64,000 bases of DNA, taken from Takakia lepidozioides (lineage: Eukaryota > Plantae > Bryophyta). The notes beneath the pieces are model-generated. The model did no database searches. It saw nothing but the letters and a program-made list of their open reading frames with translations, and had not been told where the DNA came from. The stretch is from the NCBI GenBank assembly GCA_030704615.1, contig CM060732.1:6014001-6078000 (forward strand), written 5' to 3'. Position 1 is the first letter of the stretch. The number at the start of each line of letters is the position of its first letter. Made by a program: the position numbers and the translations under genes. This document shows positions 1 to 51,990 of this stretch, piece after piece.

Positions 1-1727
1 GCTGCGTAGCAATCAGGTCAGTAGCAGAGGGGTGGGATTTGTTCAATTCGACGCCCATGATGTTGTTGGAAGATGTCGGAGCAGGCTAGTGGAGCTGGGG
101 GTAGAGCCAGAATCCGGGTCTGGTGGGGGTCTTCAACTGATATACAAGGAATAGCATGCACAAAGAATAACACAGCCCAGATGTGAGATGAGTCTATGGT
201 GTGCAAGGGGGGGTGAGAGAAACATTGTGAGGTAGAAGGGGGGGTTGTTGAGTGAAAGAGTAGGGTGTGAGGTTGGGGTATTTGGCAGCATGGGAGCAGA
301 AGAGTGAAGAACATTGGTGATGGGGCCGGGGGGGTAGTAATCATAGGGGGGTGCATTTGTATGGTGGGGGATAGAGAGTCTGAGTGGGGCAGAGGAGTGA
401 GAGGGCAGATTGGCTGTAGCAATATAGTATAAGGAGAAGGGAGAGTAGTGGTGTGAGACTAGTGCAATGATGTGAAAAGAAGGGGGGGGGGGGGGGGGAG
501 AGGTACCTGTTGAGCTGGTGCGTATGCTCGGGTAATATATCGTACCTGGGAGGGGTGGAGAGGAGAGTTGGTGGGGGGGGGGGCTGGAGGCAGTGCCAAT
601 GGCCCAACCCATCAGGCCAAGCCACCGGCAGCCGAGTACTTTGGTAAATATAGGGGTAGGGATCTGCAGCACAGACCAGGGGAGGGGAGAAAAGAGCTCC
701 AGGTGTCCCGGGTTAATGCAAAGAAAGTTGCCAGACGAGTATGTAGGCAACAAGGGATTAGTAGGAACAGTAGGAATGAGAGGGGATTTGTAGGAGGTGA
801 GGTATGATGACCATACCTAGGGATATGGGTGTATAGTGATAACTTGTATGTCGGGTTTAACTTGAGAGGGAATTGGGGGAGTCCACCAGAAGCCCCTGGT
901 GAGAGATTTGGTCTTGGGGGATTGGGTGTTTTGCAGGCAGCAGGCAGAGGTCAGGCAGGTCCAACATCGCCCAAGCAGCCGATCCAAGAACATGGTTGGT
1001 GTAGCGCCGCCTGAGAATACGATGACTGTGGCAGAGGTGATGAGGGAGCCTGAGCAATAACTGAGGTAGTGTGGTGTAGCTTATCTCGCAACGGGTGCCG
1101 GGGAGAGAAGACCCGGCCATCAGTGGTGAGCTGCTCCCTTGGTAGAGGGCGCACGTGCTCGAATACTACTTCTAGCCGTAGAGAGTGCAACATCCGTAGT
1201 CCGAGTTGTGGGGAGGGGGACCAAGCGGGTGTTGTGGGGTATACAAACCGGTATCATGGGCCCGCTGCAACATCATCTGAGGGGCGCTGTCTGAGTGGAT
1301 GCAACTCCGTATGGTGTTGGCAGTGTAGGACCAGTTACTTTTGAAAAGTAGGTAATAGAGAGGCACCTTAGCTGGTGTGTGTGTAGCGTTGCAGTAGATG
1401 CGTTCCCTCCACTTGATGTGATAGGCCTGGGGCCAAGTATGGTAATCATAGTGAAGCCAGAACATCAGAGATAGTTGACATTGGGTGGCAGATTTACCCC
1501 CCAGGACATGCCTCATGTTGAAATTGATGGGTTGTAAAGCAACAAAGCAAGAGGAAACTATGCAAATAAACTAGGTGAAAAGCAAGGAGAGCCTTGCTCT
1601 TCTTTTATACTGTTTTTGGTCCTAATAAACTAATGAGAAATATTCATTAAACTATTGTAACATTGAAGGATCTATAGTTTAATATTCAACATGGACAATG
1701 AAAGATGGCTTTTCATCCATCCTTATG

Positions 1728-3765
1728 GATGACAGGTTGGCGTAGAAAGATCTGCACACGAAAGCGGAGGAGAAGAGAAAGGAAAGACGTGTCCCTGCTG
1801 GGCCTGAGTCGGCAAAGGACGCTGATGCTCTGGAACAATCCAGAAAGGCAGTTGAGATGGCATAGAAGACGGTGGATGGAGCTGTGCAGGCTCAACAGAA
1901 GGGGTCGAAGAAGAGGACTTGCCAGCAAGGAGCAGTAGTTGTGACACCCAAAAAGACGAAGAAGCAGAAATAGAAAGAGCAGGAAGAGGGTGACGAAGAG
2001 GACTCCGATGGAGACTTTGCAACCAGCCCACCCCCCGAAACGCAGCCAAAATCCCATGTGCCCACCGTTGTCACGAGAGGGACGAGAACAGGCTTAGCCA
2101 AGAAGGCACTCTTCAACCCCCCGGGGGGGCACCCTTTCGAGCCGGTGGAAATGAAGAGGCCAAAAGTGGAGCCACAAACAGTAGTTCAGTGTGTCAATGA
2201 GAGTTTCTTGGCGGCTTTGGACGGACAGACAGCCAAGTTGGCATACATCAAGACCATGGAGGGTCTGAAGGGCAGAGCACTGAAGAAGGCGGCTGAAGCA
2301 GAGCCTTCCAACACCCCTGGGTTTCTGAAGATGGTCTTCTTCTTTGAGAAGGTGTGTGCAGGGAAGGATTGTAGGAGGGGCGGAAAAGCCACCGAGTGGT
2401 CTTGCGATATGATCATCTTGGATATTCCGGACGGAGAGCCCGTGGAAGGACTGCAAAGTTTGCCATCTTGGAACAGGTACTCCGAGGACTTTTGGAAGAA
2501 AGGATTCGGGCTCGCCCGCATGGTGTTGGACGACAGAGGCTGTGTGGTTGTCCTGGCGAGCAGCGGCAAAAACACAGAGACGCGAATTGTGGAGTGGACC
2601 CGCAAGAGCACCGTCCCAATTCTGAAGAAGAAGTGGACGTGCATCAACACATTGGGCCTTCGGTCGGAAGGGAAGAAGGTAATTATGACATTAGCAATCG
2701 TCCTTTCATTTTGTAACCTGTTTTGAAATGTGGTGCCGCATTTGATTTCTAATCGTTCCCCACTGTGTATGCAGACGAAGCAGTTTGATGCATACTGCTT
2801 TGTGAAGGAGAACTCGACCTTTGCTTTCCGGAAGGAGGGATTGTTGGTTGACCCGAACTGCGACCCCATCGATTACAACGTCCTGTTCAACAACGTTCCC
2901 ACGGAACTCCTCCCCCATAGTCTCACTTCAACGGATCCCCTGCGGTATTCACGGACTCGGAGCCCTGACTTCATCCAGACAATTATGGAGGCATGCACTG
3001 ACCTGGAGGGCAGAGTGCTGGACCTCATCTGTGGAACAGGTATGCAGATTCTTGTACTATGTTGTTCTCTGAATTTTCATTCTGTTCAAATTCGTCATGT
3101 GTGAAGGGCCATTTTTCAATGAGTGGATGGCATTGTAACAGGTGCCTCAATGTGGGCTGGGCGATTTTCCGACCGGCACCTCTTTGCCTACGAGGAGGAC
3201 ACATCCGTCTGGGGATCCCATCTAGAAGGGCTTCAACGGAATGTGAAGGCTCCCATCGAAGCCAAAGATTCCTCGGATTCGTCAGACTCGGAGGAAGAGA
3301 CAGTGGACATTGATGCCGAGGAGAACCCGGAATACGAGTGAGTGCAAACATTGTAAGTTTGCAAAGCCTTCTGGGTGATTTTTTGTCAAACGCATTTCCG
3401 GACTGAGGTTCTCATTGGTCTCGTGGGTGATTGTTATGTGCAGGATTCCAGGATCCGGGTCAAAACATGTAGGGCCTACACTTCTTGCCAGGACGAATGT
3501 CCCGTTCTTTGCGAGGGCCGACTTCATGAAGAGCCCGGTGAAGGACTACTCCCTTCCTAGTTATGCAGCTAAACTCGCAAATACAACGATTAGACGATGT
3601 GAGAATCCCAGTAAAGTAGAGCAGATTTTGGAGAGGGCTAGGGAGGACAGAAGGTTAAGGAAAGAGTTGGCAGCAACTCAGACAGATAGACGGGTGCGAA
3701 AGTTCATATGTGATTCAACGGAAGAGAGAGATGCAGACAGGGAGGACGACGACCAACGGAGGTGA
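1728..3765 (+). pseudogene. Spliced beta-class DNA amino-methyltransferase (N4C/N6A, N6_N4_Mtase-like) gene remnant
   Basis: Three GT-AG introns (2679-2774 phase 0, 3040-3141 phase 1, 3338-3443 phase 2) join ORFs 2058-2726, 2730-3104, 3123-3341 and 3415-3765 in frame. The product has a motif IV-like CDMIILDIPDG (DIPD at 2421-2432), then ARMVLDDRGCVVV, then motif X-I-II RSPDFIQTIMEACTDLEGRVLDLICGTG/ASMWAGRFSDRHLFAYEED. This is the beta-class order and spacing. The upstream part of the frame (1728-2057) contains three TAG stops. Confidence 0.8.
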
Positions 3766-4047
3766 TATGGTCGGTTCCGCAAGGGGAAGATGGGATTTTC
3801 GAAAACCTGGCCAACGAGCAGTCCGCTGGACATGAGAAAGGCAATGACGGGGTGGAAGGGGAGCAGGACAGTCAAGGACAGGACGACGATAGTCATGATT
3901 TTCAAGATTGGTAGAATTTTAATTAACTCTCTGTACATTTAAATTCTCTTCCAGAGTATATAAAGGAAATTATCCCCGTCCTTCATGTCCCCTCTCCCAT
4001 GTGCTTCTCAACGACACCATCGTCCAAACCACGTCCCTCCCAAAATC

Positions 4048-5029
4048 GGAAATGCGGCACCGCATTTCCATGTCGGAATGGAAATGTGGGAATTGCAAAA
4101 ACCTCGTTTGGAAATGCGGCACCAAATTTCCAAAACCGGGGCAAGAACAATTTTCCGTTTCCTGGTTTGGACATCAGAAACTGTTCGGCCGAACGGAAAT
4201 GCGGTGCCGCATTTTCGTTTTCGACACGGCAGTTTTAGGGAAATGGAAATGCCACCCCGCATGCAGAGGTCGAACACGTTATTTACATGGCGGACATGGA
4301 AATGGGGTGCCGCATTTCCATTTTAGAGATGGACGTTTTTCCAACTCCAGACCCATCGACGGAAATGCGGCTCCGCATTCCATGATGCTGGACGGGAATG
4401 CGGCACCGCATTCCATTGTCCAATAAGAAATTTTGATGACGTACATGGAAATGCGGCGCCGCATTTCCAGAACGGACATCGTTGTTTGTCCAATTCCAGA
4501 CCCTTGGACGGAAATGCAGCACCGCATTCCATTGTCCAATAAGAAATTTCGATGACGTACATGGAAATGCGGCGCCGCATTTCCAGAACGGACATCGTTG
4601 TTTGTCCAACTCCAGACCCTTGGACGGAAATGGGGCACCGCATTCCATTGTCCAATACGAAATTTTGATGATGGACATGGAAATGCGGTGCTGCATTTCC
4701 AGAACAGACATCGTTGATTGTCCAATTCCAGACCCTTCGACGGAAATGCGGCACCGCATTCCATTGTCCAATAAGAAAATTTGATAACGGACATGGAAAT
4801 GCGGTGCCGCATTTCCAGAACGGACACGGACATGCATTGGCGATTGGACATGCTTGGACAATTCAAGGTCCAATATGGAAATGCGGTGCCGCATTTCCAA
4901 TTCGAAGTATGGTAATGCCATGTCAAGAAATGAAATGCGGTACAACATTTCCGTTACGACCACAACGGAGGAAAAGGAGCTGCCAGAAATTGCTGCATGG
5001 AGAAAAATGAAATGCGGTGTCGTATTTCC
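4048..5029. repeat. Array of 16 copies of the palindrome GGAAATGCGG-NN-CCGCATTTCC, including ~4 tandem 116-bp units
   Basis: Copies start at 4048, 4110, 4195, 4298, 4361, 4394, 4447, 4510, 4563, 4626, 4679, 4742, 4795, 4877, 4931 and 5008. The 116-bp period is 53+63. Confidence 0.95.
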
Positions 5030-5303
5030 GAGCTTGAGCATGTACATGTTTCCTCTTACTCATACATGGATTTCCTTCACCTCAGGACTCTGACATCGCT
5101 GACTCTGGTATATTCATGTGGACAGACACATTGTAGAAATGAGACCACAAATTGTAAACAGTGGGCCAATCACAGCAGTTCTTGAACACAATGAAAAACA
5201 GCACACAGAAGTTAGGTACGATGGGTTGTTTTATTGATCAAACACGGTGTCTCACATTTAGCATTCCGGACAAATCTAAGCCCTTCCGCCTTCTACGTGG
5301 GCG

Positions 5304-5990
5304 TCACCAAGTCGACGGAACTTCGATAGCCCTCAAAACAAGCTCATTACTCAACCGGCACCTCCAGGTAAACTGCAATGCGGTCGTTCTGGTGCCCTTG
5401 GTGGAACTGACGACAATGTCATGCCCATCAATGATACCACCATCATACATTGACAAGCTGACTGTGGGCCTCATGTGCCCGTGCGATTCGTCTTCGCAAC
5501 TCAGCCGAATGTCTCCATACACTGGAAGAGCGGATTGAACTCCACGAATATAGTTTTCTTGGTGCCGTCCTCCCTGGTCCTCTGGCAGTAGTTCCAACGC
5601 CAAAGCGAGGCCGTGCGTGATCTGTCCGGCATCCCATTCCAGCTTGGTATATCGAGGTCAACAATTTTCAGGACCCACGGACTGCATTGACCCTCGCCCT
5701 CACCTCGCTCAAAGCGGTAATAGCCCTCCAAATACTCCATTGCGCGCAAAGACGAAGCGTCTGTGAAAACAGAGAGACAGACAATGATGTCTCCTGATTC
5801 TGGTTTGAACATAGCATAATCGTGGCCATGATAAGGGCAGTCAGCAGGATTGCGGCGGCACGACATCCTTGCAAAATATTAGCGGAGTACGCTCAATGAC
5901 AGCAGCTCCCGGATGGAGGAGGCAGCAGCGCGGTGGCTGGAAGAAGTTCAAGCAAACGCTGCAATTCCTCACTAACACTCCAGGGCACAT
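5304..5990 (-). pseudogene. Orphan protein paralogue A (unknown family), frameshifted
   Basis: ORFs 5501-5866 and 5304-5603 read FARMSC..DCPY..DYAM..SGDI..Y.FERG..SPW..I.D.D.PS..G.P..LS.YDGGIIDGHDIVV..FTWR..ELV, collinear with the 6273-6973 paralogue. The 5' limit is approximate. Confidence 0.65.
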
Positions 5991-6272
5991 TTAAATTTCC
6001 CCCCTACAGGAACCTGCACGGATGAAGATTGGCTGCTCCATGAATGTAGCCGTTTCAGTTTCCTTCCGTACCATGCAAACTATGGGCAGTAAGTGCCAGA
6101 TGGGCCTATAGCCACTCGAGACGACGAAGTCCATCCCCCCTTCGATGTAAATGCGGCGCCGAATTTCCATCCGGGGGATGGACTTCGGTTGCAGATTTCA
6201 AAATATACCCTGTGGATGAGAAAGAGGTATCAGTTCGTCCACCACTGGCGTGATGAACACGTTACACGATGA

Positions 6273-6973
6273 TTGGTGGGTACGTGGGACCCAGATGCTC
6301 CATTATTGGATCCCGCACTTCTCTTCCGCTTCTCATCATTTCGAAAATCTAAGGGCTTCGTTGTTGTCCGCAAGGTCATTGTCATCGACATCAAAGACGT
6401 CCTCAGGTCCTCCTTTGCAAGGATGTCGTGCTTCCGGAACCGGGACGACTGCCCTTATGGAGGCTTCGATTATGCAATGTATTCGGCCACATCGGGAGAC
6501 ATCGTTATCTAGTACACAGTTTACACAGACGATACTGGTTCGAATGTGGAAACATTGTCCGCTTTTGAGTATATCCCAGGCCACTACGCCTTCGAGCGGG
6601 GTGACGATCTTGGTCTGAGGAGTCCGTGGCTCATGCGCATCCTTGATTCCGATTTTCCCAGCTACGACGGGCACCCATACAGAAGAATGTGCACTACTAT
6701 GCTATTGGGGTGGAACTGCTGCCAGTGGACGTGGGTGGACTCCATCGGAGAGACGTATACTCCTGAAGGAGTGCGCTCCTCTTCTCTTATTCGCATTGGT
6801 GTGGACGACGAAAACATGAAGCTTTCCATATTCGATGGTGGTATGATTGAAGGGCATGACATTGTGGTGAACATAAAAGGGGCGGTACAATGGCTGCAAT
6901 CCAGTTTACCTGGAGGAGCCCGATGACTCATGAGCTAGTTTTCAAAGCAGTCAAAGTCCCATTGACAACGTGA
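6273..6973 (+). pseudogene. Orphan protein paralogue B (unknown family), stop and frameshift
   Basis: ORFs 6273-6512 and 6546-6926 plus a frameshifted tail FTWRSPMTHELVFKAVKVP*. Shares all motif blocks with 5304-5990. Confidence 0.65.
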
Positions 6974-7232
6974 CTTGTATTCAGAAGGCACATGGCTAAA
7001 GATTTGTTTGCACACTCAACACAGTAGACGTGCTTCAAAAGCAATTCATGTGGATCAATAAAATCCCCATTGTGCCCTCTTTTTGTTCAATTATGTATCC
7101 ATCGTTCCCAGAATGCATCATTCCTCATTTCGTTTGGGATTGGGAGTGTGGGTTTTTGCAAGTGGCTGGTAGGCTGAAATGGGCCCCCACTGTACAGAGC
7201 AGTACCACCCTACCATTCGCGAAACATTGCCT

Positions 7233-7440
7233 TTCAATATGTAATTCTAAAAAACATTGCCGAACCTCCTTCATTGGGAGGTCCTTCTCCCCCTATGACC
7301 GTGACACCCTGAACCCTATTCCTGCGGACACTCATTTCCGGAAAATAGTCCTGCTCATGTTTTTTTCGACACTTACGACTCTGCTCATGGCTCATGCCGC
7401 TCATGGCTCATGGCTCATGGCTCATGAAATAGCAGCCCCC
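7233..7440 (+). repeat. Shared ~200-bp terminus of the MTase/palindrome element (copy 1)
   Basis: Clearly homologous to 54891-55075. Contains GCTCATG repeats and ends GGCTCATGAAATAGCAGCCCCC, after which the flanks of the two copies diverge. Confidence 0.85.
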
Positions 7441-7941
7441 ACCTTTTCCAGGGCTACTTGGCTGGCACATGCACCAGAATACAAATGAACGGGAGGTTTT
7501 GATACAACTGACAGATTTGTATTATGAATGTTCTTTATATGATATTTTTAAATTTTCAATTGGTTTCGACCATGGAGCCTGGCCAATGACAGAAACACTC
7601 TACTTGAAAAACTGCTATAATCTTGCTTGCTGCATGATTGAACCTCCTACTCCACAAAGCACTCTGCGTTTGACCTGTAACTGAAGAGCTATGCTGCTGA
7701 TTGGAGTGATGTTGCGAGTAGGGGCCCGACCAGTGATCTACACAAGGAAGGGAAATGTTGGTGGAAGGCATCGTTGCAAGGCAGAGCTGCCTGGAGACTA
7801 AATGCTAATCTTGAACCACATGTGACTGCATAATGACCCTGTCTGCAGCAAATTAGCATTGGAAACCAATTAGACTCAAGTCTGGACACCTTGCATACAC
7901 TTGGGAGGCACTAACATCCCCTACTATTCCTTTGTTAGTAG

Positions 7942-8539
7942 TGTCAAGGATGAGAGCATAACTGAACACAAACAAGAGATTAGACTAGAGGTACAAGACT
8001 AGACAAGAAGTCAAGGTCGGCGTGGCCGAATGCATGATGGGTATATATGAATCAAGATGATCTTTATAACAATTGCCAAGAGTACAAGATACTGGAACTT
8101 GACTTGGATATTGGAATGTTGGAAACTGGACTAGAGTACTGGAAGCTGGACTGGAGTACTGGGACTGGAAACAAGAGTAGTTTGAATTTGTGTTGGCGAG
8201 ACTGAAGAGTGTCCAGTCTCGTCTCCTATATATACTGGCTATTAAGAAGTTCTCTAAGAGGCTTCCCCAAAGGAGGTTTCTTGATGGAGAAGTTTCCAAG
8301 GTTAAACAAATGAGGTATCTTGATGGAGAAGTTTCCTCCAAAGGAAGCTTCTTGAGCAGTTTGAAGTTTCTCAAGTTACTCTTGGTAATTTGGTAAATTC
8401 TCGGTAACTTGGTAACTAATGGTAACTTATGATAAATCATGGTAGATCATGGTAGATCACGGTAACTTTTGATAACATGATAACTTGGTAACTTCTGGTA
8501 TTTACTCCTAATAAGTTCCTCTGGGCTATGTCCATGACA
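7942..8539 (-). repeat. 3' LTR of family A copy 1
   Basis: Direct repeat of 13263-13811; TGTCA..TGACA ends. Confidence 0.92.
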
Positions 8540-8691
8540 TCACCCTCTCCTCTAGCACCGAGTTCCTCGAGGAGCGGTAAAATCTTGGACTTGCTTAGAG
8601 TTGGAGAACCTCCCTCCTTAATGTATCATATACACTGAATGTGGAGTCTTCACCTTGAAGCTAACATGGCTGATATCATCGTTGTGACGTT

Positions 8692-11600
8692 TTATTGACG
8701 TGTAGCTCGGGGCTTAGCTGGATATCGTTGATGAAACTCTTGGACTTTGTCAGATGCATTGGCAAGGTTGGATGAAGGTTCCCAAGTTCGTTCGCTGATG
8801 TCGTAGCCTTTCCAATGTACAAAATATTCAAGACGTTTATACTTGATGCGAGAGTCTAAGACTTTGTCGACTTCATACTCGATTTCCTGATTGACTTCGA
8901 TTGGTGGAGGTGGTACGGAGACTATCCCTGGAATATTCGATGGATGATACAACTCCAATAATGAAACATGAAAGACTGGATGGATGCGCATACTTCGTGG
9001 GAATTCAAGCCGAAAACTGACCGGATTTATTTGTCGAATAATTTTGAATGGTCCCAGGCGTTGATAATCCAACTTCCTTGATGGTCGCGAGGTTTGTATG
9101 TCCCGTCGAAGAAGCCACACACGATCTCCGATCTTGAACTGGGGTTGGAGTTGGCGACGTTGATCTGCATACTCCTTGTATTATTTTTGAACTTCTGCGA
9201 GGTGGAATGTAAGGTCCTTGTGAATCGTAGCAAGATGAGTAGCAAGGTTTTAAGTAGCAGGGCTTCCAACAGTCTTCATGTGGAAAGGGTTTACTCGAGG
9301 ATGATGACCATAATTGGAGAAAAATGGAGTTTGCTTGGTCGAAGAATGTATAGTGTTGTTGTAGGCAAACTCAGCCAATGACAGAAAGTCCGTCCAATTA
9401 TCTTGGTGATAATTTATCGTACAGCGAAGATACTGCTCTAAAATCTGGTTTACGCGTTCGGTTTGACCATCAGTCTGTGAATGATTAGTTGTAGAGAGAT
9501 TGATCTTAGTATCCAATATGTGAAATAATCCCCTCCAAAAATTTGATATGAACTGTGGTCCTCGATCAGATACGAAGTCCTTCGGGAGTCCATGAATGCG
9601 GTAGATATTATTGAGGAAGAGTCTTGCAGTTTCCTCATCGGTAACTGTCTTATTACATAGAATGAAATGTGTCATCTTTGTAAAACGATCTACAATAACA
9701 AGGATTGAATCGGTGGTCTTGGAAATTGGAAGGTCCGTAATAAAGTCCATAGACACTGACGACCATGGACCATTGGGAATGGATAATGGTTGAAGAATGC
9801 CGTAAGATCGATGTCGTGGTCCCTTCGCTCTAGCACACGTGTCACAAGATTTTATAAATTCTTTCACGAATTTCCACATCTACGGCCACCAATAGTCCCT
9901 GGATATCAATTCCATTGTTTTGTTGAAGCCGAAATGTCCTGCAGCCGGAAGATCGTGACATGTTTGAAGAATTCGCAGTCGTGTAGGTCCTGGAGGTACA
10001 TAGAGAAGTCCCTTGAAATAAAGTAAGTCATCTTTGAATTCGAAGTCGTTTGTAAATGTGGGTTGTCTCGAGGTCGATTTAGTTGACTTCGTAGTGTCGT
10101 AGCAAATTGCTCGCTCTTCAGTGCTTCCCGAATCTCCTTTATGATCTCTACATCGTCATAGGTGGACATGGATAGCATATTCAATTGGAGATTTGCTGGT
10201 TTCAAGATGATGGATTTCTATTGGTCGAAAGTTGCATCCCTTTTTTTCGGCGCAAGATACGATCATCGAGAAAGAGCATCGGGTTTCCCTTGAAGATGTC
10301 CGGGGCGATAGGTAATAACAAAATCAAACCTTGCTAGTGACATACCCCATCTTGCTTGACGTCGATTCAAAACACGAGCATTCATAAAATATTCGAGGTT
10401 TTTTTATCGGTGTAGACAGTGACCTGATGTTTAGCTCCCTCCAATAAATGACGTCACTCCTCAAAAGCATCAATGATCGCTAGAAGTTCTTTGTCATAGA
10501 TTTCATAATTGATCTCTGCAGTGGAAAATTTGTGAGAACGAAAACCAACAGGGTGAAGTCGGTCATCCGTACTGTATTGAGAGAGTATAGCGCCAAGTGC
10601 AAAGTCTGATGCATCTGCTTAAAAAAAGAATGGTTTAGATGGGTCTGCATGTACCAGTATTGGGGCCGTTGTAAATGTCTGCTTCAGTCTTTAAAATGCC
10701 TGGTCAGCCTTCTCGTCCTATTCAAATTTGTCCTTCTCTGTGAGTCGTGTCAATGGTGCAGCAATTTTGAAGTAGTCTTTGATGAAGATTCTATAGAAAT
10801 TTGCAAATCCTAGAAAACATTGTACATCTCGGACCGAAGTTGGTTTAATCCACTCGATGATGGTTTGTATTTTCTTCTGATCCATAAAGACGTCTTTGTC
10901 GGAAATAATGTAGCCCATAAATTCGACCTCAAATTGATGGAAAAAACATTTTTCCAACTTGGCATATAGTCCTATTTCTCTTAATTTATCAAAGGACGAG
11001 GCGTACATGGCGGCCATGTTCTTCTTCATTCTGTGAAAATATCAAAATGTCGTCCAAATAGATGACTACAAAGTCATTTAAAATTTCTCGAAAGATGTCA
11101 TTCATCATATGTTGGAAAATCGCTGGAGCATTTGTAAGACCGAAAGGCATAACACTGTATTCAAAATGTCCATACCTTGTTCGAAAAGCTGTTTTCCATT
11201 CGTCTCCTTCTTTTATCCGTACAAGGTTATAAGCTCATCTCAAGTCAATTTTGGTGAAAATCTTCGCTCGTCCCAGTTGGTCGAGAAGCCCAGAAATCAG
11301 CGGCAACGGATAACGATTCTTAATTGTGACTTTGTTGAGACCGCGATAGTCCACACACATGCATAATGATCCGTCCTTCTTTTTCACAAACAAGATAGGC
11401 GCCCCCACAGGTGATTTTGAATGTCAAATGAAGTTCTTCGACAAATTTTCATCAATGTACTCACGTAATGCAGCCAATTCCATCTGGGATAAGTTATAGA
11501 TTGGGCCGAATGGTGGTTGGGCTCCTTCTTGTAACTCAATTGCACAGTCATAAGGTCGATGTTCTGGCAATATATCTGTATTTTTCTTCTCGAAGACATC

Positions 11601-12311
11601 CTTGAAATCTTGATATTGAGTAGGTAATGTCGAAGTACCTTTATCTGTTGTGGTCTTGATCGGAATCGCATAAAGTGCAAATGCCGCATCCTTTTTAGTA
11701 GCTCTCATGAAAGCTCTAGCTCCAATGAACAGGGGTTGAATACCTTTGATATTTCTACATTTTCGTCTTGCAAATTTTTTTTGCGATCGCCAGTCGATGT
11801 CAGGATTGTGAAGTACGAACCAGGGAAGTCCAAGGATCACATGATTCGTTGGAGACTAGATGATGTTGAAAACAATATGTGATGTTTGATCTTCAAGCTT
11901 CACTTCAAGTGGTCGAGTTTCATGGTCAACATTTCCTGATGCTAACGGTCGTCCATCGATGATTTCAACGGGGGCCGAGAGTTTTTTCTTTACGAGCGTT
12001 AAATTGTGTTGCTTCGCAAAGTTTTTGTCAATAAAACGTGCTGAAGCCCCTGAGTCCAAAAGTGCTTCTACAGAGATATCTCGATTTTGCACTCTGATTT
12101 TTACCGGAACTGTAAAGCAAGGTGCACAGTCTGGAGGTAGAAAAAGATTTTTTTTTTTTGAGGAATTTGTGGTATCCAGCCGCATGGTCCCTACTGTGAC
12201 TGGACATCTTCGTTTTCTGACCTCCTCGTATCGAACACTTGAGTTGTGCCCCGAGCTTTGAATTTTCTCTTGTTGGGGCAGTTTAATGCTATATGATCTT
12301 CTTCTCCGCAA
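8692..12311 (-). pseudogene. pol (PR-RT-RH-INT-chromodomain) of family A copy 1
   Basis: Fragmented ORFs 11856-12311 (PR), 11424-11840, 10718-11029, 9250-9879 (integrase core) and 8692-9120 (GPF + chromodomain). Confidence 0.9.
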
Positions 12312-13224
12312 TAGAGGGATAATCCATTCGAGCGTCGTCTTTGTTTTTCTTGTGGCGTCAATGGCTTGAATTGGACAGCATCAATCTGCATAGGATCATT
12401 ATCGGATGTCTGATGGATCGTTGTATTTAGTGCCGTAGTAGCAACGACATGATGCGTCGTCGACCATCCAAATTGCTTCTCTTGACGTCTTTCGAACAAA
12501 CGATTATCGCATGCAATGACTTGGGTGATGAATTCGCTCAATGTGCTCACGTTTGGCATTGTCAGCAACAAATCTTTTACATTCTCTTTTAGTTCACATC
12601 GAAACTGACTAATGAGGCTCTTCTCATTCCATTCGAGGTCGCACGCAAGTTGTCGAAATTCGGCAGCATAAACGGAAGCAGGACGTGCTCCTTGTCAAAG
12701 ATTTCGCATCTTTGTCTCTGCAACTCTCTCCCTATCATTTTCTCCAAACGTTGCAGTGAACTCGAACATGAGTGCTTCAAAATTGTATAGTAAATGTGAA
12801 TTTTTTTCTAATAGCGGTGCAAACCAAAATAGGGCAGTGCCTGATAGAAGGGTGCCCACGAATCCCACTTGAATACCTTCATCGGGGTAGCGTTGTGGAT
12901 GTAGTCCTAGGAATTATTTGTTGAACAAAACCGCGAAATCTTTCTCGTCCCATCAAATTTCCCAGGCATGCTGATCTTTGGTTCTCTCGTAATCTGTTGA
13001 AGAGGAACCGTTGCAGTAGGAGCTATTGCAGTAGAGACTCGTATGGTTGAAGATCCATTGTTTGACTCCTTTAACTCTGAAATTTGTTGTTGTAAATTGT
13101 GGAGAGCGTTACCAAGATCTTGAAACTGATCAGCTTGTAATTGGGCGGTAGAGGTACGAAGTTCTTGCATATGGAGCTGAAGACTCTGCAATGTGGCGAC
13201 CATTTCCGCAAATGTGCCTTTCAT
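12191..13224 (-). pseudogene. gag of family A copy 1
   Basis: PKISMPGKFDG..R, DPMQID and a degenerate zinc knuckle (LYCGEEDHIALNCP); homologous to 42490-43530. Confidence 0.88.
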
Positions 13225-13262
13225 CTTAATTAACTAAGGAACAAACTTTAGTCTCGTCAAAC

Positions 13263-13811
13263 TGTCAAGGACGAGAGCATGACTGAACACAAATAAGAGA
13301 TCAGACTAGAGGTACAAGACTAGACAAGAAGTCAAGGTCGGCGTGCCGAATGCATGATGGGTATACATGAATGAAGATGATCTTTATAACAATGGACAAA
13401 AGTACAAGATACTGGAACTTGACTTGGATATTGGAATGCTGGAAACTGGACTAGAGTACTAGATATTGGAAACTGGACTAGAGTACTAGAAGCTGGACTG
13501 GAGTACTGGGACTGGAAACAAGAGTAGCTTGAACTTGTGTTGGCGAGACTGAAGAGTGTCAAGTCTCGCCTCCTGGCTACTAGGAGGTTCCCTAAGAGGC
13601 TTCCCCAAAAGAGGTTTCTTGATGGAGAAGTTTCCTCCAAAGGAAGCTTCCTGAGCAGTTTCCCAAGTAACTCTTGGTAATTTGATAAACTTTCGGTAAC
13701 TCGGTAACTTATGGTAACTTATAGTAAATCGTGGTAACTTTTGGTAACTTGTTAACTTGGTAACTTTTGGTATTTACTCCTGGTAAGTTCCTCTGGGCTA
13801 TGTCCGTGACA
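13263..13811 (-). repeat. 5' LTR of family A copy 1
   Basis: Direct repeat of 7942-8539, followed by TSD AGTAG. Confidence 0.92.
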
Positions 13812-15603: not shown

Positions 15604-16205
15604 AGGTGTGACACCCAACATTACATTCATTTCTGTTCTCAATGCTTGTGCCAGCCTAGGAGCCCTGGAAAAAAATACAGAGGTCCGTGAGCTGACATCA
15701 TTATGGACACTTTGTCGATATGTATGCCAAGTATGGGAGCTTGAACGATGCCAGACAAGTTTTTGACAAAACGTCTCAACGAAATGTGGTCTCATGGAGT
15801 GCAATGATGGAGGCTTTTGAGATGTATGAGCAGATGATACGGGAAGGCATAACGCCCAGCAAGGTCACGCTTATTTCCATTCTCAATGCATGTGCCAGCA
15901 TAACAGCCCTGGAGGAGGTCCATGCTGACATCATCAAAGATGGAGTTGCCTCATATATCTCTTTAGAAAAATGCACTTTTTAATAGGTATGCCAAATGCG
16001 GCGGCTTAAAGGATGCACGGGATGTGTTGGACAACATGGCTGAGCAAGATGTGGTATCATGGAGTGCAATCCCAGCGCAATGTCGATCGCAGGATATACT
16101 CAGCATGGGTTTGGTGTGGAGGCTTTAGATATCTATGAGCAAATGATATAGGAAGGGGTGACACCCAACAAGGTTACGTTTATTTGTGTTCTCAAGGCCT
16201 GTGTC
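15604..16205 (+). pseudogene. PLS-class pentatricopeptide repeat (PPR) gene fragment
   Basis: GVTPN.ITFISVLNACASLGALE, DMYAKYGSLNDARQVFD..NVVSWSAM, YAKCGGLKDARDVLD..DVVSWSA and GYTQHGFGVEALDIYEQM..GVTPNKVTF; contains deletions and stops. Confidence 0.88.
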
Positions 16206-28684: not shown

Positions 28685-29415
28685 TGTCGCGCACCTCACT
28701 TCGGTAAACTCTCCCCCCTCAAGTCATAGTTACTCGCTTGATGCGCGCGCCTAACTCCCAACCTGGCCGCCGGGCCAACTTGGAGCTCCGGCTGCTCACC
28801 GGGGCATACCGGTCCCCCCTTTGATCTCCCAAAGAACCCTCCAACGATTTGGAACCAGCGGAATTCCCTTTGGTAGTTGGCAGTCCGGAACAGTTCCCCA
28901 CTCTTTGGTCGCTTTCCGGCTCGCTCGCTTACTCACTAGTTTTTGGTCACCAACGGGCTTGCACCGTTCTCGGGGTTACTACTCCCTATATATATACTTC
29001 TGTAGCTGTCCGCGGGGGTTTCACAAACAACCATGCCATTTTATGGCGAACCACCACGAACACCCTCGACTCCCGGTGATGAGTCGCAGTGAGTCTTGGC
29101 CCACCCACCACGGCCCCTATGGACCGTGATGAGTCCCAAGACTCCCCACGACTCCCACCACGAGGTCTCCGCCCCAAGGTGAGTCCTATGCCACCCCCAC
29201 TAAGTCCCGCTAAGCTACCACCACCCCTTGTGGAGCCACCCCCACCGCAACCCGGTGTGCAGGGCTCCACCTAGTGAGCGCCTCCGCCTCCTTGAGTGCC
29301 TTGAGCACTCAAGGGTGCTTCAGCCCCCCATACCTATCGCTGTCACTGCCCCCACCACAGGGGCAGCCCCTCTTGTGTCCCGACCCCCCTGCCCTCAAGG
29401 CAAAGGGCCGCGACA
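28685..29415 (-). repeat. 3' LTR of family B copy 1
   Basis: TGTCGCG..CGCGACA ends; direct repeat of 34876-35605. Confidence 0.95.
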
Positions 29416-30338
29416 CACACCCCTACCAACAGGGAGTCGATGTCCTCATCGGCTTGTCCATTTTGTGGAAACGAACATCCAAGTTGTGGCGTCCCATATC
29501 AAGGAGTTTGTTTCTGTACCATGGCGTCCCATGGCAAAGAACCAAACCCACACTCGACTCTACTCTCCACTAGCTAGTTCGGCCGACTTCCTCCAAGTCC
29601 CGGCCAAGGGTGGAGCCTCTCAAGCTCCTCCCAGTGCACTCTTCTTGGCCTACTTCAAGGCCAAGGAACGATCCTCCCCGAGGATCGAATCGCCTTACTG
29701 CAACAACATTGCTTGCGATCGCTCATGATGCCGCTTTTGGCATCACCTTGAGCAAGGGTTCACCTCGAACCCTCTTTGACTAGGAAGATAACCTTGAACC
29801 AACCGCGCGCCCCATTGACTACAATTGGGTCCGCCTTGGAATGCTGGCCTGAGGTACGGGAACACGCCAAAGCCGCACTACGACTTCGTCCCGAGGCTAC
29901 ACGATTATAGTACGTGAACGGAAGCACGTAGCTTCCGCGTTAGCCCGCACTACAAAGCAACCCCCTCGGTAGCGCAGTTATAGTATGCACACGCGTCAGG
30001 TGCGCACTAGCACGTGAACTCCTAAAGAAGGCACAAGTTTCCTTGCCCCTTGGATGGGAGTCACCCGATTTCGGCACTGCGCAAACACATGATTAACCCA
30101 ATTTACCTCTCCCACTTTTGTAAGCTAGCATGTATTCTACACACTAGTCAACCACACCATGCATCACCATTCCAAACAAAATAGGACGCACAACATTTGG
30201 AACCCATTTCCTTTATAACAAATTTTTGTACAATACAAGTTTTTGCAATCGGATTTCTAAGCTAGCTAAGCCGGGCTAAGCATGCATTTCCTCCCCCACG
30301 CTCCAAGGTTGATGTCCCCATCAACGCTTCTTCCGTTT

Positions 30339-33300
30339 TTAAGGTCGCCCTTCGAAAACTGCAACCGCCTCGGATGCGTTTCCCATTTCTGAGGCACGCA
30401 CCCAAGATGCCTCCACATGATGATAGCCCTTCCATTTGACGAGATACTCCGTTTCTCGGTTCTTGAACCTCCTCGACTTAAGTACTGCCTCCACCTCGTA
30501 CTTAAGTTCATTTTCATGATCCAACAGCACAGGTGACGGACGCAACACTTAATGCCGATTCGGACGCGCTTCATCTTTGAAGTAAGGCTTCAAAAGGGAG
30601 ACGTGGAATATTGGATGCACTTTGCTGTTTGCCGGAAGCTCCAATTCATACACATCCTCATTCATAACCTTCCGGATGCGAAAGGGTCCCGCATACGGAG
30701 GTACGAACTTTGGACTCACTTCCGGAGGTAGTCGGAAATTCTTGATGTTCAACCAGACCTCCGTGCCTGCCTCAAACTTCACTTCCCTCCGCTTCCGATT
30801 CGCCTGCCTTTCATACCGTTTCCTAGCTTTGGCAATGTTGTACTTTGCGAGCTTCAACAAACGCTCGCGTTCTTCCAGTACCGCCGCTACTGCCGGTTCC
30901 TCAACGTCCTGGGCGGCCCAACTTGTCGGCACCAGAGGTGCTTTTCCATAGACCAATACGAAAGGGGAAACTCCCGTTGTGGAGTGTTTTGTGTTATTAT
31001 AATAGAACTCTGCCGCGTCTAAGTGTTCCACCCAGTCTGTTTGGTCTGCCGACACGTAATTCCGCAAGATCTGCTTCACTACGGAATTCACTCTTTCCGT
31101 TTGGCCGTCGGTCGTAGGTCGGAAGGCGATGCTCATCTTCAGCCTCGTCCCCATCTTCTTCCAAAGTGCCCTCCAAAATTTACTCGTAAACTTTGGATCG
31201 CGGTCCGAGACAATATCCTTCGGGACTCCATGATGATTTAAGACGTGGGCGAAGTAAAGTCGCCCTGTTTCCTGCGACGTTGCCGTCTCCTTGGTGGGGA
31301 TGAAATGGCCCATTTTACTAAACCTATCCACCACCACCATGATTGCATCGAATCCTTTTGACAGCGGCATAACAGTCATGAAATCCATCGAGACGCTCTC
31401 CCAAGTCCCATCTGGAATCGGCAAGGGTTGTAACAGCCCCGCTTGCTTTTTGTACTCGCTCCGGTTTTGTTGGCATGTGGTGCATGTCTTGACATACTCC
31501 TCTGCCTCCTCCCTCAGTTTGGGCCAGAAATACTCTTTCTTCAAGAGTGCGCAGTGTGCTTGGCTCCGCCGGGGCCTGCAAGCGGGCTATCATGGCATTC
31601 TCTCAAGAGGCTATCTCTGATCCCTCCCTTCGGCACGTAGAGACGATTTTGCTTATACCGGAGCAGTCCATTTTGCAAGTGGAACTGCGATTTAACCCCC
31701 ATCCTCAAGTCCTGCATCACGAATTTCGCCAGCTCATCCTTCCGGATCTTCCTTTGGAGCGCCGTCTCGCCCCCGTACACCAACAAGAGTTGTTGCTTTC
31801 TACTTAAAGCTCCGCCACCACGTTGTCCCGTCTCGGTTTGTACTGGATATCCACATCGAACACCGCCAAAGTATCTTGCCACCTAAGTTGTTTTGGGGAA
31901 AACTTAGGCTGCGTGGCAAAATACTTCACCGTGACATTGTCCGTGAACACCTTCACTGGGTTGGAACCAACATAGTGGCGCCAAAGCTCAAGACAGTGCA
32001 CCACCGCCTTCATCTCTTTCTCGTGCGCCGGCCACCGTCGCTCCACTTTATTCAGTTTCTTACTTTCGTAAGCCACTGGACGTCCCTCTTGCATCAGTAC
32101 ACCCCCAATCGCGAAGTCCGACGCATCTGTATGAATCTCGAACGGACGATCGAACTCCGGGATTTTCAAGACTGGAGCTTCCGCCATCCGCTGCTTCAAT
32201 TCAGCAAAAGCTTGGGCACAAAAGGTGTTCCATGCCCAGACTTTGGATTTACACAGAAGGTCTGACAGCGGCCCCGCGATCTTGGCGAAATTTCTCACAT
32301 ACTTCCGGTAATAGGAGGCGAGTCCTAGGAAGGATCGCACTCCCGGGACCGAAGTCGGAGGTTCCCAATCCAAGATTGCCCTCACCTTCCTGTCATCCAT
32401 TCTGATCCCATCCTGTGTAATCACATGCCCCAGGAACTCCACTTTTGTGACCCCGAAATTCGCACTTTGAAGCTTTGGCATACGGCTTCCCTTCCCGCAA
32501 TTTTTGGAACACGCTTTTGAGGTGCTCCAGGTGCTCCTCCTTTGTTTTGGATACACCAAGATGTCGTCGATGTACACGATCACGAAGTCATCCAACCACT
32601 CCTGGAAAAGGCTATTCATCAGCGTGCTAAAGGTCCCGGGAGCATTGGTGAGTCCAAAAGGCATCACCAAGAACTCATATGAACCATACCTTGTCCTGCA
32701 TGCGGTCTTCTTCTCATCTTCTTCCGCTACTCGAATTTGATGATAGCCGGAGCGCAGATCAATCCGGCTAAAATACTTCGCTCCTGCCAACCAATCAAAA
32801 AGGTCGTCGATCCTTGGCAAAGGGTACCGGTTTTTGATAGTCACCTTATTCAGAGCCCTGTAATCGACACACATCCGCAGCGTCCCATCCTTCTTGTCTG
32901 TGAATAGCACCGGGGCTCCGTAAGGTGACTTACTCGGCCGGATGTACCCCTTTGAATTAGATCTTTGAGCTGAGTCTTCAGCTCGACCAACTCTGTGTGA
33001 CTCAACCGGTAGGGCTCCTTGGTAGGCGGTTCCGATCCCGGTATCACCTCAATCTTGTGGTCAACTCCTCTTCGCGGTGGCAAGCCGTTTGGTAAATCCT
33101 CCGGCATCACATCCTGGTATTTCTCCAAAATCCCCTTGATCCAATCTGGGCTCGGCTCCCCATCGCCTTCTCCCTTCACTTCTCTAATATAGAGCAAAAA
33201 CTGGGGCTCGTGTGCCTCCTCCACGGCCCACTCCCTTGCTGACAGAAGGTTTATTCTCCCTCCCATGGGTTTGGGCGTTTTCGACACTCGTAAGACCTCG

Positions 33301-34820
33301 CCACCATTCCCACATGGCAGCGTGACTACTCTCTTGCGGCCATCTATGACCGCTCCGGATTTGCTCAAAAAGGTCATCCCCAAAATGAGATCCACTCCAT
33401 TGATCTCGCAGATGGTGAAGTTCTCACGTCCATCCCAACTCCCCAGTTGAAGAGGAACATCAAACGCCAACCTTGTCGCCAATTGCGGTTCTTCTTTGGC
33501 AGAACGCACCTCAATAGAGGCCCCCACGTCACTTGTCGGGAGTCCTAGCTTTTGTGCCATTGCCGGTGTCATGAAGGAGTGCGACGCTCCTGTGTCCACC
33601 AACAATGACACGTTAGTTCCGGATATTATCCCATCCACGAACAATAACTGACTCCCTTTACGTAAGGCGCCAGTTTCCTGATACAACTCACAAAAAAATT
33701 TGCCTACCTTGCAAGTCCTGGCGACCACCGCTTCCACCAAGAATTGACGGGGCTTCGTGCACTTCTTGGCCATGTGCCCGGGCTCCCCGCAATTGAAACA
33801 CACTCCATCAAAGGTCGCCTTCTGTCCGCCATAGGCCGCTCCACCCGCTTTTCCTTTCGAAGCACCGGGTGTCGCCTTGACTTGTGAAGGCCCTCCCTTC
33901 GATTTCCACGTGCCATTGTCGCCGCGTGGCCTATCCCACTTCTTTTCCGGTCGAAAGGAGTCACCTTCCTGCCGGGTCTTCTTGTGGTTCAGCTCCGTAC
34001 GGCCTTGTCTTTCACCCTTAGGGACATCCGAGAAACATTCAGCCCTCTCAATTGCCTCGTTCAAAGTCTTAGGTGGCTTCTCCTCCAACTTCCGCCTGGC
34101 CCATGGGGCCAGTCCCGCCACAAAGTTGAAGACCATTTCTTGTTTTGCCATGTCCGCGACTTTGAGCAACAGCACATTGAAAGCCTGGACATATCCCCGA
34201 ATGTCATCTGTTTGCTTCAAATTCCTCATCTTGTCCCGGGCGAGCCAGGACGCGTTGAGGGGCACAAACTGCCTCTTCATCAATTCTTTGAACCCACTCC
34301 AGTTCAAGGTTTCCGGGCTTGGACCTCGGTCGTGAAGGCGTTTCTGCCACCATTGTTGAGCATAGCCCCTCAAATAGGTGGGAGCCACTTCCACCCGATC
34401 CTCGTCACTCAACTTGGCCGCCCGTAAGTACTGCTCTAGCTCCAAGAGCCAGGTGTTGAGTGCCTTCCGATTTCGGACGCCCTCGAAGGTGCCGGGTTCC
34501 TTAGGCTTCACCTTAAACTTTGCCTTAGTGGAAGTGGCATTAGCCGCCTTCAACACGTCTTTCAACGTCCCGCCAAATTGCGCCAACAACCCTTCCCAAA
34601 AGGCTGCCGGCATGGAAGGCATCTGTTGGTCGGTCGGAGCTCTCAAGGATTCCTCAGGCTCCGTCTCCTCATATTTCTCCCGCTCTTGAGCGGCCTCGTT
34701 TTCGGAAACATGCATCGCTTCCTCAAACGACCGCCTCGGTGACACGTCACCCCCATCGGGCTCACCAAGATCATCATCTTTTGGGCCGTTCCGCTTTGGC
34801 TTTGGCTTGCCCGACCCCAT
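30339..34820 (-). pseudogene. gag-pol-chromodomain of family B copy 1 (few frameshifts)
   Basis: ORFs 32850-34874, 31804-32910, 31541-31882, 30549-31544 and 30339-30548 (YEVEAVLKSR..YLVKWKGY..SWV). Confidence 0.93.
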
Positions 34821-34860
34821 GATGAGGCCAATCCCAAGGACGATCGCGTACTGAACACTA

Positions 34861-34873
34861 AGCTCTGATACCA
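34861..34873 (-). promoter_or_regulatory. Primer binding site complementary to the tRNA-iMet 3' end
   Basis: TGGTATCAGAGCT 2 nt inside the 5' LTR boundary; the same site occurs at 50747-50759. Confidence 0.9.
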
Positions 34874-34875
34874 AG

Positions 34876-35605
34876 TGTCGCGCACCTCACTTCGGTAAAC
34901 TCTCCCCCCTCAAGTCATAGTTACTCGCTTGATGCGCGCGCCTAACTCCCAACCTGGCCACCGGGCCAACTTGGAGCTCCGGCTGCTCACCGGGGCATAC
35001 CGGTCCCCCCTTTGATCTCCCAAAGAACCCTCCAACGATTTGGAACCAGCGGAATTCCCTTTGGTAGTTGGCAGTCCGGAACAGCTCCCCACTCTTTGGT
35101 CGCTTTCCGGCTCGCTCGCTTACTCACTAGTTTTGGTCACCAACGGGCTTGCACCGTTCTCGGGGTTACTACTCCCTATATATATACTTCTGTAGCTGTC
35201 CGCGGGGGTTTCACAAACAACCATGCCATTTTATGGCGAACCACCACGAACACCCTCGACTCCCGGTGATGAGTCGCAGTGAGTCTTGGCCCACCCACCA
35301 CGGCCCCTATGGACCGTGATGAGTCCCAAGACTCCCCACGACTCCCACCACGAGGTCTCCGCCCCAAGGTGAGTCCTATGCCACCCCCACTAAGTCCCGC
35401 TAAGCTATCACCACCCCTTGTGGAGCCACCCCCACCGCAACCCGGTGTGCCGGGCTCCACCTAGTGAGCGCCTCCGCCTCCTTGAGTGCCTTGAGCACTC
35501 AAGGGTGCTTCAGCCCCCCATACCTATCGCTGTCACTGCCCCCACCACAGGGGCAGCCCCTCTTGCGTCCCGACCCCCCTGCCCTCAAGGCAAAGGGCCG
35601 CGACA
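34876..35605 (-). repeat. 5' LTR of family B copy 1
   Basis: Direct repeat of 28685-29415. Confidence 0.95.
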
Positions 35606-41600: not shown

Positions 41601-42453
41601 GATTGGTCTGCCGACACATAATTCTGCAAGATCTGTTTCACCACGGAATTCACTATTTTCGTTTGGCCGTCCGTCGTAGGTCGGAAAGCCGTACCTCATC
41701 TTGAGTCTCGTCCCCATCTTCTTCCAAAGTGCCCTCCAAAATTTACTTGTAAACTTTGGATCGCGGTCCGAGACAATATTCTTCGGGAATCCATGATGCT
41801 GTCACGGACATAGCCCAGAGGAACTTACCAGGAGTAAATACCAGAAGTTACCAAGTTACCATGTTATCAGAAGTTATCATGACTTGCCGTAATTTACCCT
41901 GATCTACCATGATTTACCATTACTTATCAAGTTACTGGGAGTTTATCAAATTACCAAGAGTAACTTGGGAAACTGCTCAGGAAGCTTCATTTGGAGGAAA
42001 CTTCTCCATCAAGATACCTCTTTTGTTTAAGGAAGCTTCTCCATCAAGAAACCTTTGTTTAATCTTGGAAACTTCTCCAGCAAGAAACTTCCGTAGGGGA
42101 AGCTTTTTAGGGAAGCTTCTTAGTATCCAGTATATATAGGAGGCGAGACTGGACACTCTTCAGTCTCGCCAACACCAGTTCAAGCTACTCTTGTTTCCAG
42201 TTTCCAGTACTCCAATCCAGTTCCCAGTACTCTAACCCAGTTTCCAGTATCTGATACTTCAGTCCAGTTTCCAGCATTCCAATATTCAAGTCATGTTCCA
42301 ATATCTTGTACTCTTGTTCATTGTTATAAAGATCGTCTTGATTCCTATTTATTCATCGTGCATTCGGCCACGCCGACCTTGACTTCTTGTCTAGTCTTAT
42401 ACCTCTAGTCTGATCTCTTATTTGTGTTCACTCAATTTCTCGTCCCTGACAGT

Positions 42454-42464
42454 TTGGCGAGACT
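42454..42464 (+). promoter_or_regulatory. Self-priming PBS (Tf1-type)
   Basis: TTGGCGAGACT is the exact reverse complement of AGTCTCGCCAA (42162-42172), which lies ~30 nt after the TATATATA box at 42131. Confidence 0.8.
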
Positions 42465-43502
42465 AAAGTTTGTTTCTTAGTTAGTTAAGATGGAAGGCAC
42501 ATTTGCGGAAATGGTCGCCACATTGCAGAGTCTTCAGCTCCATATGCAAGAACTTCGTACCTTTACCGCCCAATTGCAAACTGATCAGTCTCAAGATCTT
42601 GGCAACGCTCTCCACAATTTGCAACAACAAATTTCAGAGTTAAAGGAGTCGAACAATGGATCTTTAACCATACAAGTCCCTACTGCAACAGCTTCTACTG
42701 CAACGGTTCCTCTTCAACAGATTATGAGAGAACCAAATATCAGCATGCCCGAGAAATTTGATGGGACGAGATCAAGATTTCGCGATTTTGTTCAACAAGT
42801 ACGACTGTTCATACGACTACATCCACAACGCTACCCCGATGAAGGTACTCAAGTGGGATTCGTGGGCACCCTTTTATCAGGCACTGCCCTATCTTGGTTT
42901 GCACCGCTAATAGAAAAAAATTCGCATTTACTATATAATTTTGAAGCATTCATGTCCGAGTTCACTGCAACGTTTGGAGAGAATGATAGAGAGAGAGTTG
43001 CAGAGACAAAGATGCGAAATCTTCGACAATGAGTACGTCCTGCTTCCGTTTATGCTGCCGAATTTTGACAACTTGCGTGCGATCTCGACTGGAATGAGAA
43101 GAGCCTCATTAGTCAGTTTTGATGAGGGCTAAAAGATGATGTAAAAGATTTGCTGCTGACAATGCCAAACGTGAGTACACTGAGCGAATTCATTACCCAA
43201 GTCATTGCATGCGATAATCATTTGTTCGAAAGACGTCAAGAGAAGCAATATGGATGGTCGACGACGCACCATACCGCTGTTACTACGGCACCAAACACAA
43301 TGATCCATCACATATCCGGTAATGATCCTATGCAGATTGATGCTGTCCGATTCAAGCCATTGACGCCACAAGAAAAATAAAGACGACGCTCGAATGGATT
43401 ATGCCTCTATTGCGGAGAAGATGATCACATAGCATTAAACTGCCCCAACAAGAGAAGATTCAAAGCTCGGGGCACAACTCAAGTGTTCGATATGAGGAGG
43501 TT

Positions 43503-51912: not shown

Positions 51913-51958
51913 GGAAATGCGGCGCCAAATTCCCATCAAGCGGGGATGACTAGAGGGG

Positions 51959-51990
<32 letters not shown>

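Follow-up and report, generated by a model that had tools for sequence, protein, structure and literature searches.

Gene structure

The DNA analysed here, referred to as the window, is a stretch of 64,000 nucleotides from Takakia lepidozioides (assembly GCA_030704615.1, contig CM060732.1). It contains a methyltransferase-like gene on the forward strand, in which four exons (1725-2678, 2775-3039, 3142-3337 and 3444-3765) join into 578 codons plus a stop. An earlier, sequence-only reading had placed the start at 1728, but the frame begins with the ATG at 1725; after splicing it is open from 1974 to the TGA at 3763-3765. Exon 1 opens with a charged N-terminus of low complexity, interrupted by three premature TAG stops, and continues into the first half of the methyltransferase-fold domain, with DIPD (2421-2432) at the motif IV position, where it aligns with DPPY of CcrM and DLPY of the phage enzymes, and with the family signature PSWN (2463-2474), whose Trp is invariant in the homolog alignment. 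The variable loop region follows in exon 2, together with RTRSP at the place where HPTQKP would be expected and most of motif I (DLICGT). Exon 3 supplies the end of motif I, the motif II strand (FAYEED) and an acidic linker, and exon 4 a charged C-terminal tail without a family match.

All three introns are of the GT..AG type, with donors GTAATT, GTATGC and GTGAGT and acceptors that end in CAG. Intron 1 (2679-2774, 96 nt) is in phase 0; intron 2 (3040-3141, 102 nt) is in phase 1 and splits the last Gly of motif I, so that DLICGTG is encoded by 3021-3039 plus 3142-3143; intron 3 (3338-3443) has a length of 106 nt that is not divisible by three, and other copies show a 1-nt gap here. The T content is 0.36-0.40 in the introns versus 0.17-0.23 in the exons, the G+C content 0.37-0.44 versus 0.50-0.56, and read-through of introns 1 and 2 meets in-frame stops. 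The three frame-joining introns proposed earlier, with junctions at 2678/2775, 3039/3142 and 3337/3444, thus hold up, as does the proposal that motif I is divided by one of them.

Conservation of the introns had been set beforehand as a test of this gene model, and the position of intron 1 proved to be common to the homologs. A Val codon (GTN) lies at most six residues from the intron-1 column in 17 of 20 unspliced homolog ORFs, where the chance of this is estimated at about 1/3, and 18 of the 20 come to a stop at most 68 residues from the intron-1 anchor. Locus L001 has a GTATGT donor at the same place, and the NCBI model P0015 diverges from its unspliced relative P0008 at this column. For P0024 and P0026 similarity is lost just past motif I, which is the position of intron 2. 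A full-length contig from run X7, 89% identical, covers 1744-3997 unbroken; it differs in 239 letters and has one gap each at 2758 (intron 1), 3379 (intron 3) and 3752 (the last codons). Two runs that we guessed to be RNA contain no joint at any of the three introns and are uninformative on expression. Judged from the DNA and the homologs, the gene is likely to be spliced, and because the intron positions are common to homologs, the introns would be older than the split of proteins that are now 25-39% identical.

The premature TAG stops are located at codon 7 (1743-1745), codon 47 (1863-1865) and codon 83 (1971-1973) of the spliced frame, and contigs of four other runs have no stop at codon 47. 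Because of these three stops, which the sequence-only reading did not report, the full protein cannot be made from the window copy, which is a pseudogene.

Repeated unit and genomic setting

Downstream of the gene, 16 near-palindromic 22-mers (GGAAATGCGGNNCCGCATTTCC) occupy 4048-5029, partly as a 116-bp tandem repeat. There are 28 such 22-bp palindromes across the window, with none expected by chance, and 11 of them form a second array at 51913-52716, with a period of about 127 bp, which adjoins a 30-nt poly(A) run. Two broken ORFs of unknown family follow the first array, at 5303-5891 on the reverse strand and at 6273-6974 on the forward strand. They are inverted paralogs, 72-74% alike, that flank a strong hairpin (6125-6187) and have no Pfam or NCBIfam match. 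The right boundary of the repeated unit, marked by GCTCATG tandem repeats (7233-7440, forward strand), recurs at 54891-55073, where it is preceded by a second, truncated copy of the exon-1 region (54508-54728, forward strand, 59% amino-acid identity) and a palindrome. A long forward frame with two stops (53400-54730) leads into this second copy. By eye, part of it (54133-54510) resembles the N-terminal domain found in fern members of the family and may be a remnant of such a domain; the likeness is not significant, with no BLASTP match and with E 0.59 in a further comparison.

The gene therefore lies in a repeated unit, as the second copy and the shared end show, and its carriage by a mobile element is likely, judged from copy number and the shared end. 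Of the earlier proposal that the gene is element-borne, the location in a repeat stands, whereas mobility itself is inferred: among the 78 of 93 window ORFs that were scanned (the 15 in repeat arrays were left out) there was no transposase and no DUF3435 tyrosine recombinase. Neither a terminal inverted repeat nor a target-site duplication was found in the window, in which both copies are partial with undefined left ends, and positions 1-8000 gave no Rfam match.

The unit ends at 7440, ahead of a Gypsy element that starts near 7942, and the gene is outside that reverse-transcriptase element. The window as a whole consists of nested remains of Gypsy and LINE elements, and a fragment of a PPR repeat (15696-15980, forward strand; PF13041, E 8e-9) lies between retroelements. 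Together with the fern relatives, this setting suggests a land plant that is probably seed-free. One Gypsy LTR element occurs twice in opposite orientation (7942-13811, reverse, and 41797-46123, forward; 83-94% alike), and the region 8692-9180 is presumably its chromodomain-like end. A second Gypsy element has copies at 28687-35602 and 39272-51483, one of which is split by nested insertions. Within a retroelement region there is also a reverse-strand ORF (61362-61916), the translation of which we take to resemble the end of a C5-cytosine methyltransferase domain, as in DNMT3-bearing Gypsy elements.

Fold assignment through relatives

None of five pieces of the window matched Pfam, and single exons compared with Pfam, PDB sequences, PHROGs and NCBIfam gave nothing beyond one chance-level PHROG row; the Atlas gives N6_N4_Mtase at only 0.81. 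The fold was assigned through relatives. When exon 1 was compared with 1.84 billion proteins there were 25 matches, the best 39% identical, 24 of which form one family; the remaining one, P0022, was rejected as a false match, a cytochrome c. The named members are hypothetical proteins of the ferns Adiantum nelumboides and A. capillus-veneris, and the others are unnamed.

The joined core of the window gene matches P0026 (E 1e-34), P0045 (E 5e-19) and P0015 (E 2.6e-13). P0045 exceeds the gathering threshold of PF01555 (29.8 vs 26.7 bits) and matches phage DNA methyltransferase families at 3e-8; P0026 matches PF01555 below Pfam gathering (E 0.062). A profile of the family gave five PDB matches; of the best three, all at E about 0.03, two were to M1.HpyAVI and one to CcrM, and DPPY fell on the D-L-P-T of the family. 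In profile-profile comparison with 60 phage enzymes, the local match spanned 197 columns and scored 97.4%, and the global match scored 98.3%. The two halves taken singly scored 94-95%, where the score of the N-terminal half is partly circular since 56 of the 60 were chosen by a DLPYG motif. Against four DPPY enzymes chosen without the plant motif the score was 96.0% for the whole and 28.7% for the N-terminal half, and column-shuffled profiles reached at most 2.3%. Motif IV, the target region and motif I follow one another in this order in the profile-profile comparison.

A first structural model, made from P0026, which reads through an intron, had a pLDDT of 55, no match at E 0.001 and a best Z of 5.9. 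A domain model of the fern protein P0015, built from a plant-only alignment, reached a pLDDT of 81.7 and a pTM of 0.81. Foldseek matched it to M1.HpyAVI at E 2.5e-10, and the alignment with M.MboIIA had a Z of 17.2 (rmsd 3.4, 191 residues aligned), followed by M.BceJIV (Z 16.9), CcrM (16.4), N4CMT (13.8) and METTL3 (10.9). The top 20 structural rows were all beta-class or MT-A70 enzymes, and the model also matches phage and giant-virus enzymes. It is nearer to the bacterial enzymes than to the MT-A70 family (Z 16-17 vs 9-13), and an MT-A70 profile, applied to 25 proteins with a cut-off of E 1, matched none of them. The beta-class (permuted) amino-methyltransferase fold is established by way of relatives, through the Pfam match of P0045, the profile match and the predicted structure of fern P0015. 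A match to this SAM-binding fold had been set beforehand as a test, and the earlier view that motif IV precedes motif I in a beta-class protein was borne out by the same evidence.

Motif IV across the plant family

The motifs were surveyed in 35 redundancy-filtered alignment rows, including the window gene. Residue 1 of motif IV is Asp in 32 rows and Ser in none; residue 2 is hydrophobic in all 35 and never Pro; residue 3 is Pro in 33. Residue 4 varies, with Thr in 12 rows, Asp in eight, Phe in six, Tyr in three, Ser and Glu in two each, and Asn and Ile in one each. An aromatic residue 4 is thus present in nine rows and missing in 26, of which 25 have a polar residue instead, and PP[YFW] occurs in no row. 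About 15 residues past motif IV, the Trp is invariant throughout the family. The Gly loop of motif I is present in all eight plant rows shown. An HPTQK-like motif, found in 59 of the 60 phage references, occurs in none of these eight rows; in its place the plant family has a stretch resembling RG..(E/K)SP, which in the window gene reads RTRSP. The window motif I, DLICGTG, keeps the Gly loop and not the Phe of FxGxG; its motif II, AYEED, keeps the acids, and the motif II acid is missing in P0055 and P0045.

The catalytic motif (D/N/S)PP(Y/F/W) is accordingly replaced by DIPD in the window. Since the protein fails in this motif despite its beta-class scaffold, we do not file the gene, as read from its sequence, among the active PF01555 enzymes or among the N4C writers; the N4C label given to it earlier found no support, with no Ser-first row among the 35.

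Adiantum nelumboides has both motif types in proteins of the same domain layout, DLPT in P0015 and DLPF in P0055. In the family tree, ten DLP[YF] rows make up one supported subclade that is nested among DLPT-type rows, so that the aromatic residue would have been regained once or lost several times. Placing all non-aromatic rows in a single clade gave p-AU 0.03 (32 rows, nine near-copies left out), a weak result for a group named after the tree had been seen. Two outgroup sets join the tree at different places on long branches and name no donor. The alignment and tree show that the family extends beyond a single genome and that a subclade in ferns retains the aromatic residue, both of which the sequence-only reading had missed; no DLP[YF] paralog was seen in the organism of the window.

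The fern proteins P0015 and P0055 share an N-terminal domain fused to the methyltransferase domain; the window gene is without it. This domain of P0015 resembles DUF3723 clusters in the Atlas (score 0.95, 175 shared features), and a Pfam scan of the fern domain gave no match. A likeness to ParB was not supported (0.08% against phage ParB domains). P0047 is a gene model fused to a retrotransposon gag. No close relative was found in viral, metagenome and prokaryote contigs by a method that finds close relatives only; a further search for relatives gave one locus, and a word-based search among longer proteins gave no match.

Copies in sequencing contigs

The DIPD codons were compared in 100 contigs drawn from four runs, and none of their changes reached 3%. 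Throughout 2395-2478 the sole change at or above 3% was at 2441, in a synonymous Pro codon, in a count limited by the fact that contigs drop rare variants. Run X1 alone, which may be the source sample, had 94 contigs on the 84 bases around the motif, 30 of them at least 99%, 24 of them 95-99% and 40 of them 90-95% alike, a contig depth that is not equal to copy number; two very small assemblies that come from other studies also contain the motif stretch. From the spread of contigs, and because the window itself holds a second copy and a recurring right boundary, the gene is likely to be a many-copy repeat.

Of the 25 codons counted as different between the window gene and the full-length contig, all five in the core from motif IV to motif II are synonymous, versus two of 20 outside (p 0.0004). 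When the domain is drawn from codon 150 the counts are five of nine versus two of 16 (p 0.058). These changes, which cover 27 of about 300 difference rows, suggest that the core is kept under selection.

Comparison of the contigs and of the 35 rows indicates that DIPD is fixed in the copies of this organism and typical of the family. The check on genomic copies that had been proposed earlier thus came out in favour of fixation, and the suggestion that DIPD reflects decay of this one copy does not hold. With it falls the view that the gene is an otherwise ordinary N4C or N6A enzyme, like those of Marchantia or rotifers, in which the motif was lost through decay of the window copy alone. It shares the fold with such enzymes, N4CMT being among the structural matches (Z 13.8), but the constancy of DIPD in the contigs and the survey of 35 rows, with neither PP[YFW] nor a leading Ser, contradict copy-specific decay, and we give this explanation almost no weight.

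Interpretation

The best explanation, which we prefer tentatively and hold at slightly less than an even chance, is that intact members of the family are non-methylating, DNA-binding pseudo-enzymes, probably dimeric, that serve the element carrying them, and that the window gene is a broken copy of this likely spliced and likely element-borne family, for which a beta-class fold is predicted. An ancestral prokaryote-type enzyme would have entered a plant mobile element once, and the captured gene would then have gained introns, lost the base-stacking aromatic residue of motif IV and the His of HPTQK, and kept the Gly loop of motif I. In the enzymes reviewed in PMC7544214, the bulky residue 4 of motif IV stacks on the target base and residue 1 activates the amino group; without the aromatic residue a flipped base would presumably not be held for methyl transfer. 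The surfaces for dimerization and DNA binding may have been retained by analogy with METTL14 (EPPL) or MTA9 (NALW), non-catalytic subunits that are marked by eroded motifs (PMC7544214). The protein could bind element DNA, with the palindrome arrays as obvious, putative two-fold targets, either alone or beside a DLP[YF]-keeping paralog as putative partner.

In favour of this explanation are the rarity of the aromatic fourth residue (9/35 rows), the absence of HPTQK from the eight plant rows shown, the signs of selection on the core, the many copies and the coexistence of both motif types in one fern species. Against it stand the conserved first Asp, third Pro, invariant Trp and motif I Gly loop and the retained motif II acids of the window gene, which would also suit a functional SAM site and hence an enzyme. 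Such an active methyltransferase of altered chemistry or substrate is the strongest competitor, although we regard it as rather unlikely. Here, the Asp would activate the target, the Trp or a residue of a partner would replace the aromatic, and residue 4 would be part of a site reshaped to accept a different base, RNA or protein. Asp in 32/35 rows, Pro in 33/35, the invariant Trp and a Gly loop in 8/8 rows shown all agree with this, as does a residue 4 that is polar in 25 of 26 non-aromatic rows and hence not random; moreover, according to PMC7544214, neither the fold nor the motifs determine the substrate. It is weakened by the loss of the stacking aromatic in 26/35 rows and of the HPTQK His, by P0055 and P0045 being without the motif II acid, and by the finding that a double change replacing Ser and Tyr in SPPY abolishes the activity of N4CMT (PMC8885841).

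Division of labour in beta-class dimers (PMC7544214, PMC10406627) also allows for a two-subunit 6mA writer, in which the eroded members act only in obligate partnership with DLP[YF] paralogs, the pair methylating adenine in element or host DNA. The occurrence of both motif types in Adiantum nelumboides, with the same domain layout, and an Asp-first motif that suits N6A speak for this, and the DLP[YF] subclade, from its motif, could write 6mA. The subclade is, however, a single nested one, so that a partner of this kind may be missing for most of the family; P0055 is without the motif II acid; and 6mA is described as lost from major multicellular lineages in the available text of a preprint (10.64898/2026.05.21.726589). 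We consider the two-subunit writer improbable. Less probable again, and only slightly credible, is a passenger that serves no purpose today, a captured gene that is inactive and has been copied along with the repeat. The three stops of the window copy and the truncation of the second copy are in line with a passenger, but motifs and intron positions are kept across proteins 25-39% identical and the core changes are synonymous. On balance the non-methylating, DNA-binding pseudo-enzyme is preferred over the enzyme of changed chemistry, the two-subunit writer and the passenger, at the same tentative level as above.

Comparison with known systems

The plant family shares its fold, its motif order (IV, variable region, I, II) and its leading Asp with the prokaryotic beta-class N6A enzymes (PF01555: M.MboIIA, M1.HpyAVI, CcrM, M.BceJIV and the phage DLPY type), with which it is collinear over about 200 columns. 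It differs in being mostly without the stacking aromatic residue and without HPTQK, and in having spliceosomal introns, charged extensions and many repeat copies. METTL14 and MTA9 likewise combine an eroded motif IV with a beta-class fold (PMC7544214), but are MT-A70 host genes with known active partners, and the plant family is structurally nearer to the bacterial enzymes.

MpDN4MT1a/b of Marchantia and N4CMT of bdelloid rotifers are also prokaryote-type permuted amino-methyltransferases in eukaryotes, and N4CMT has introns. Both carry SPPY, according to the available texts on MpDN4MT1 (10.1101/2021.02.12.428880) and N4CMT (PMC8885841), and unlike the plant family they are active 4mC writers encoded by few-copy host genes; MpDN4MT1 is set apart by its description. 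The likeness drawn earlier to the Marchantia and rotifer enzymes therefore does not extend beyond the fold, Ser being first in 0/35 family rows.

Dam-type domains of DIRS and LTR retrotransposons are adenine-methyltransferase domains on a mobile element, a carriage that is likely for the plant gene too. They belong to another group, and the plant gene has introns and no link to a reverse transcriptase. In the portions of Iyer et al. (PMC4738411) that were available, the DIRS Dam copies are judged inactive, and the permuted clades are MT-A70 plus two restricted ones, none like the plant family. The terms moss, bryophyte, land plant and N6_N4 do not occur in the available text of the preprint on retrotransposon Dam domains (10.64898/2026.05.21.726589). 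The Atlas likeness of the fern P0015 N-terminal domain to DUF3723, a conserved cargo gene of Starships (10.1101/2021.12.13.472469), is a lead only; the window gene is without the domain, and no tyrosine recombinase was found.

Significance

A literature search, with most subscription papers outside its scope, including any journal version on Marchantia that might discuss plant homologs, found no description of this plant family, and term searches of the available text of PMC13562431 and PMC13054798 found nothing bearing on it. It is conceivable, if doubtful, that seed-free plants harbour undescribed cargo-carrying elements with a DUF3723-like domain and a phage-type beta-class methyltransferase, and that the DLP[YF] subclade together with eroded partners writes 6mA in the element. 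If true, this would be a land-plant system of adenine methylation outside the MT-A70 family.

Few eukaryotes are known to have prokaryote-type amino-methyltransferases, which are either active genes of the host, as in Marchantia and rotifers, or parts of retrotransposons. The plant family is separate from these, intron-bearing and situated in repeats; it is missed by Pfam scans, and its catalytic motif is remodelled family-wide yet kept. It supplies concrete proteins for the question of whether land plants have any real 6mA writer, bears on what mobile elements do with catalytically eroded methyltransferases, and tags a many-copy element type.
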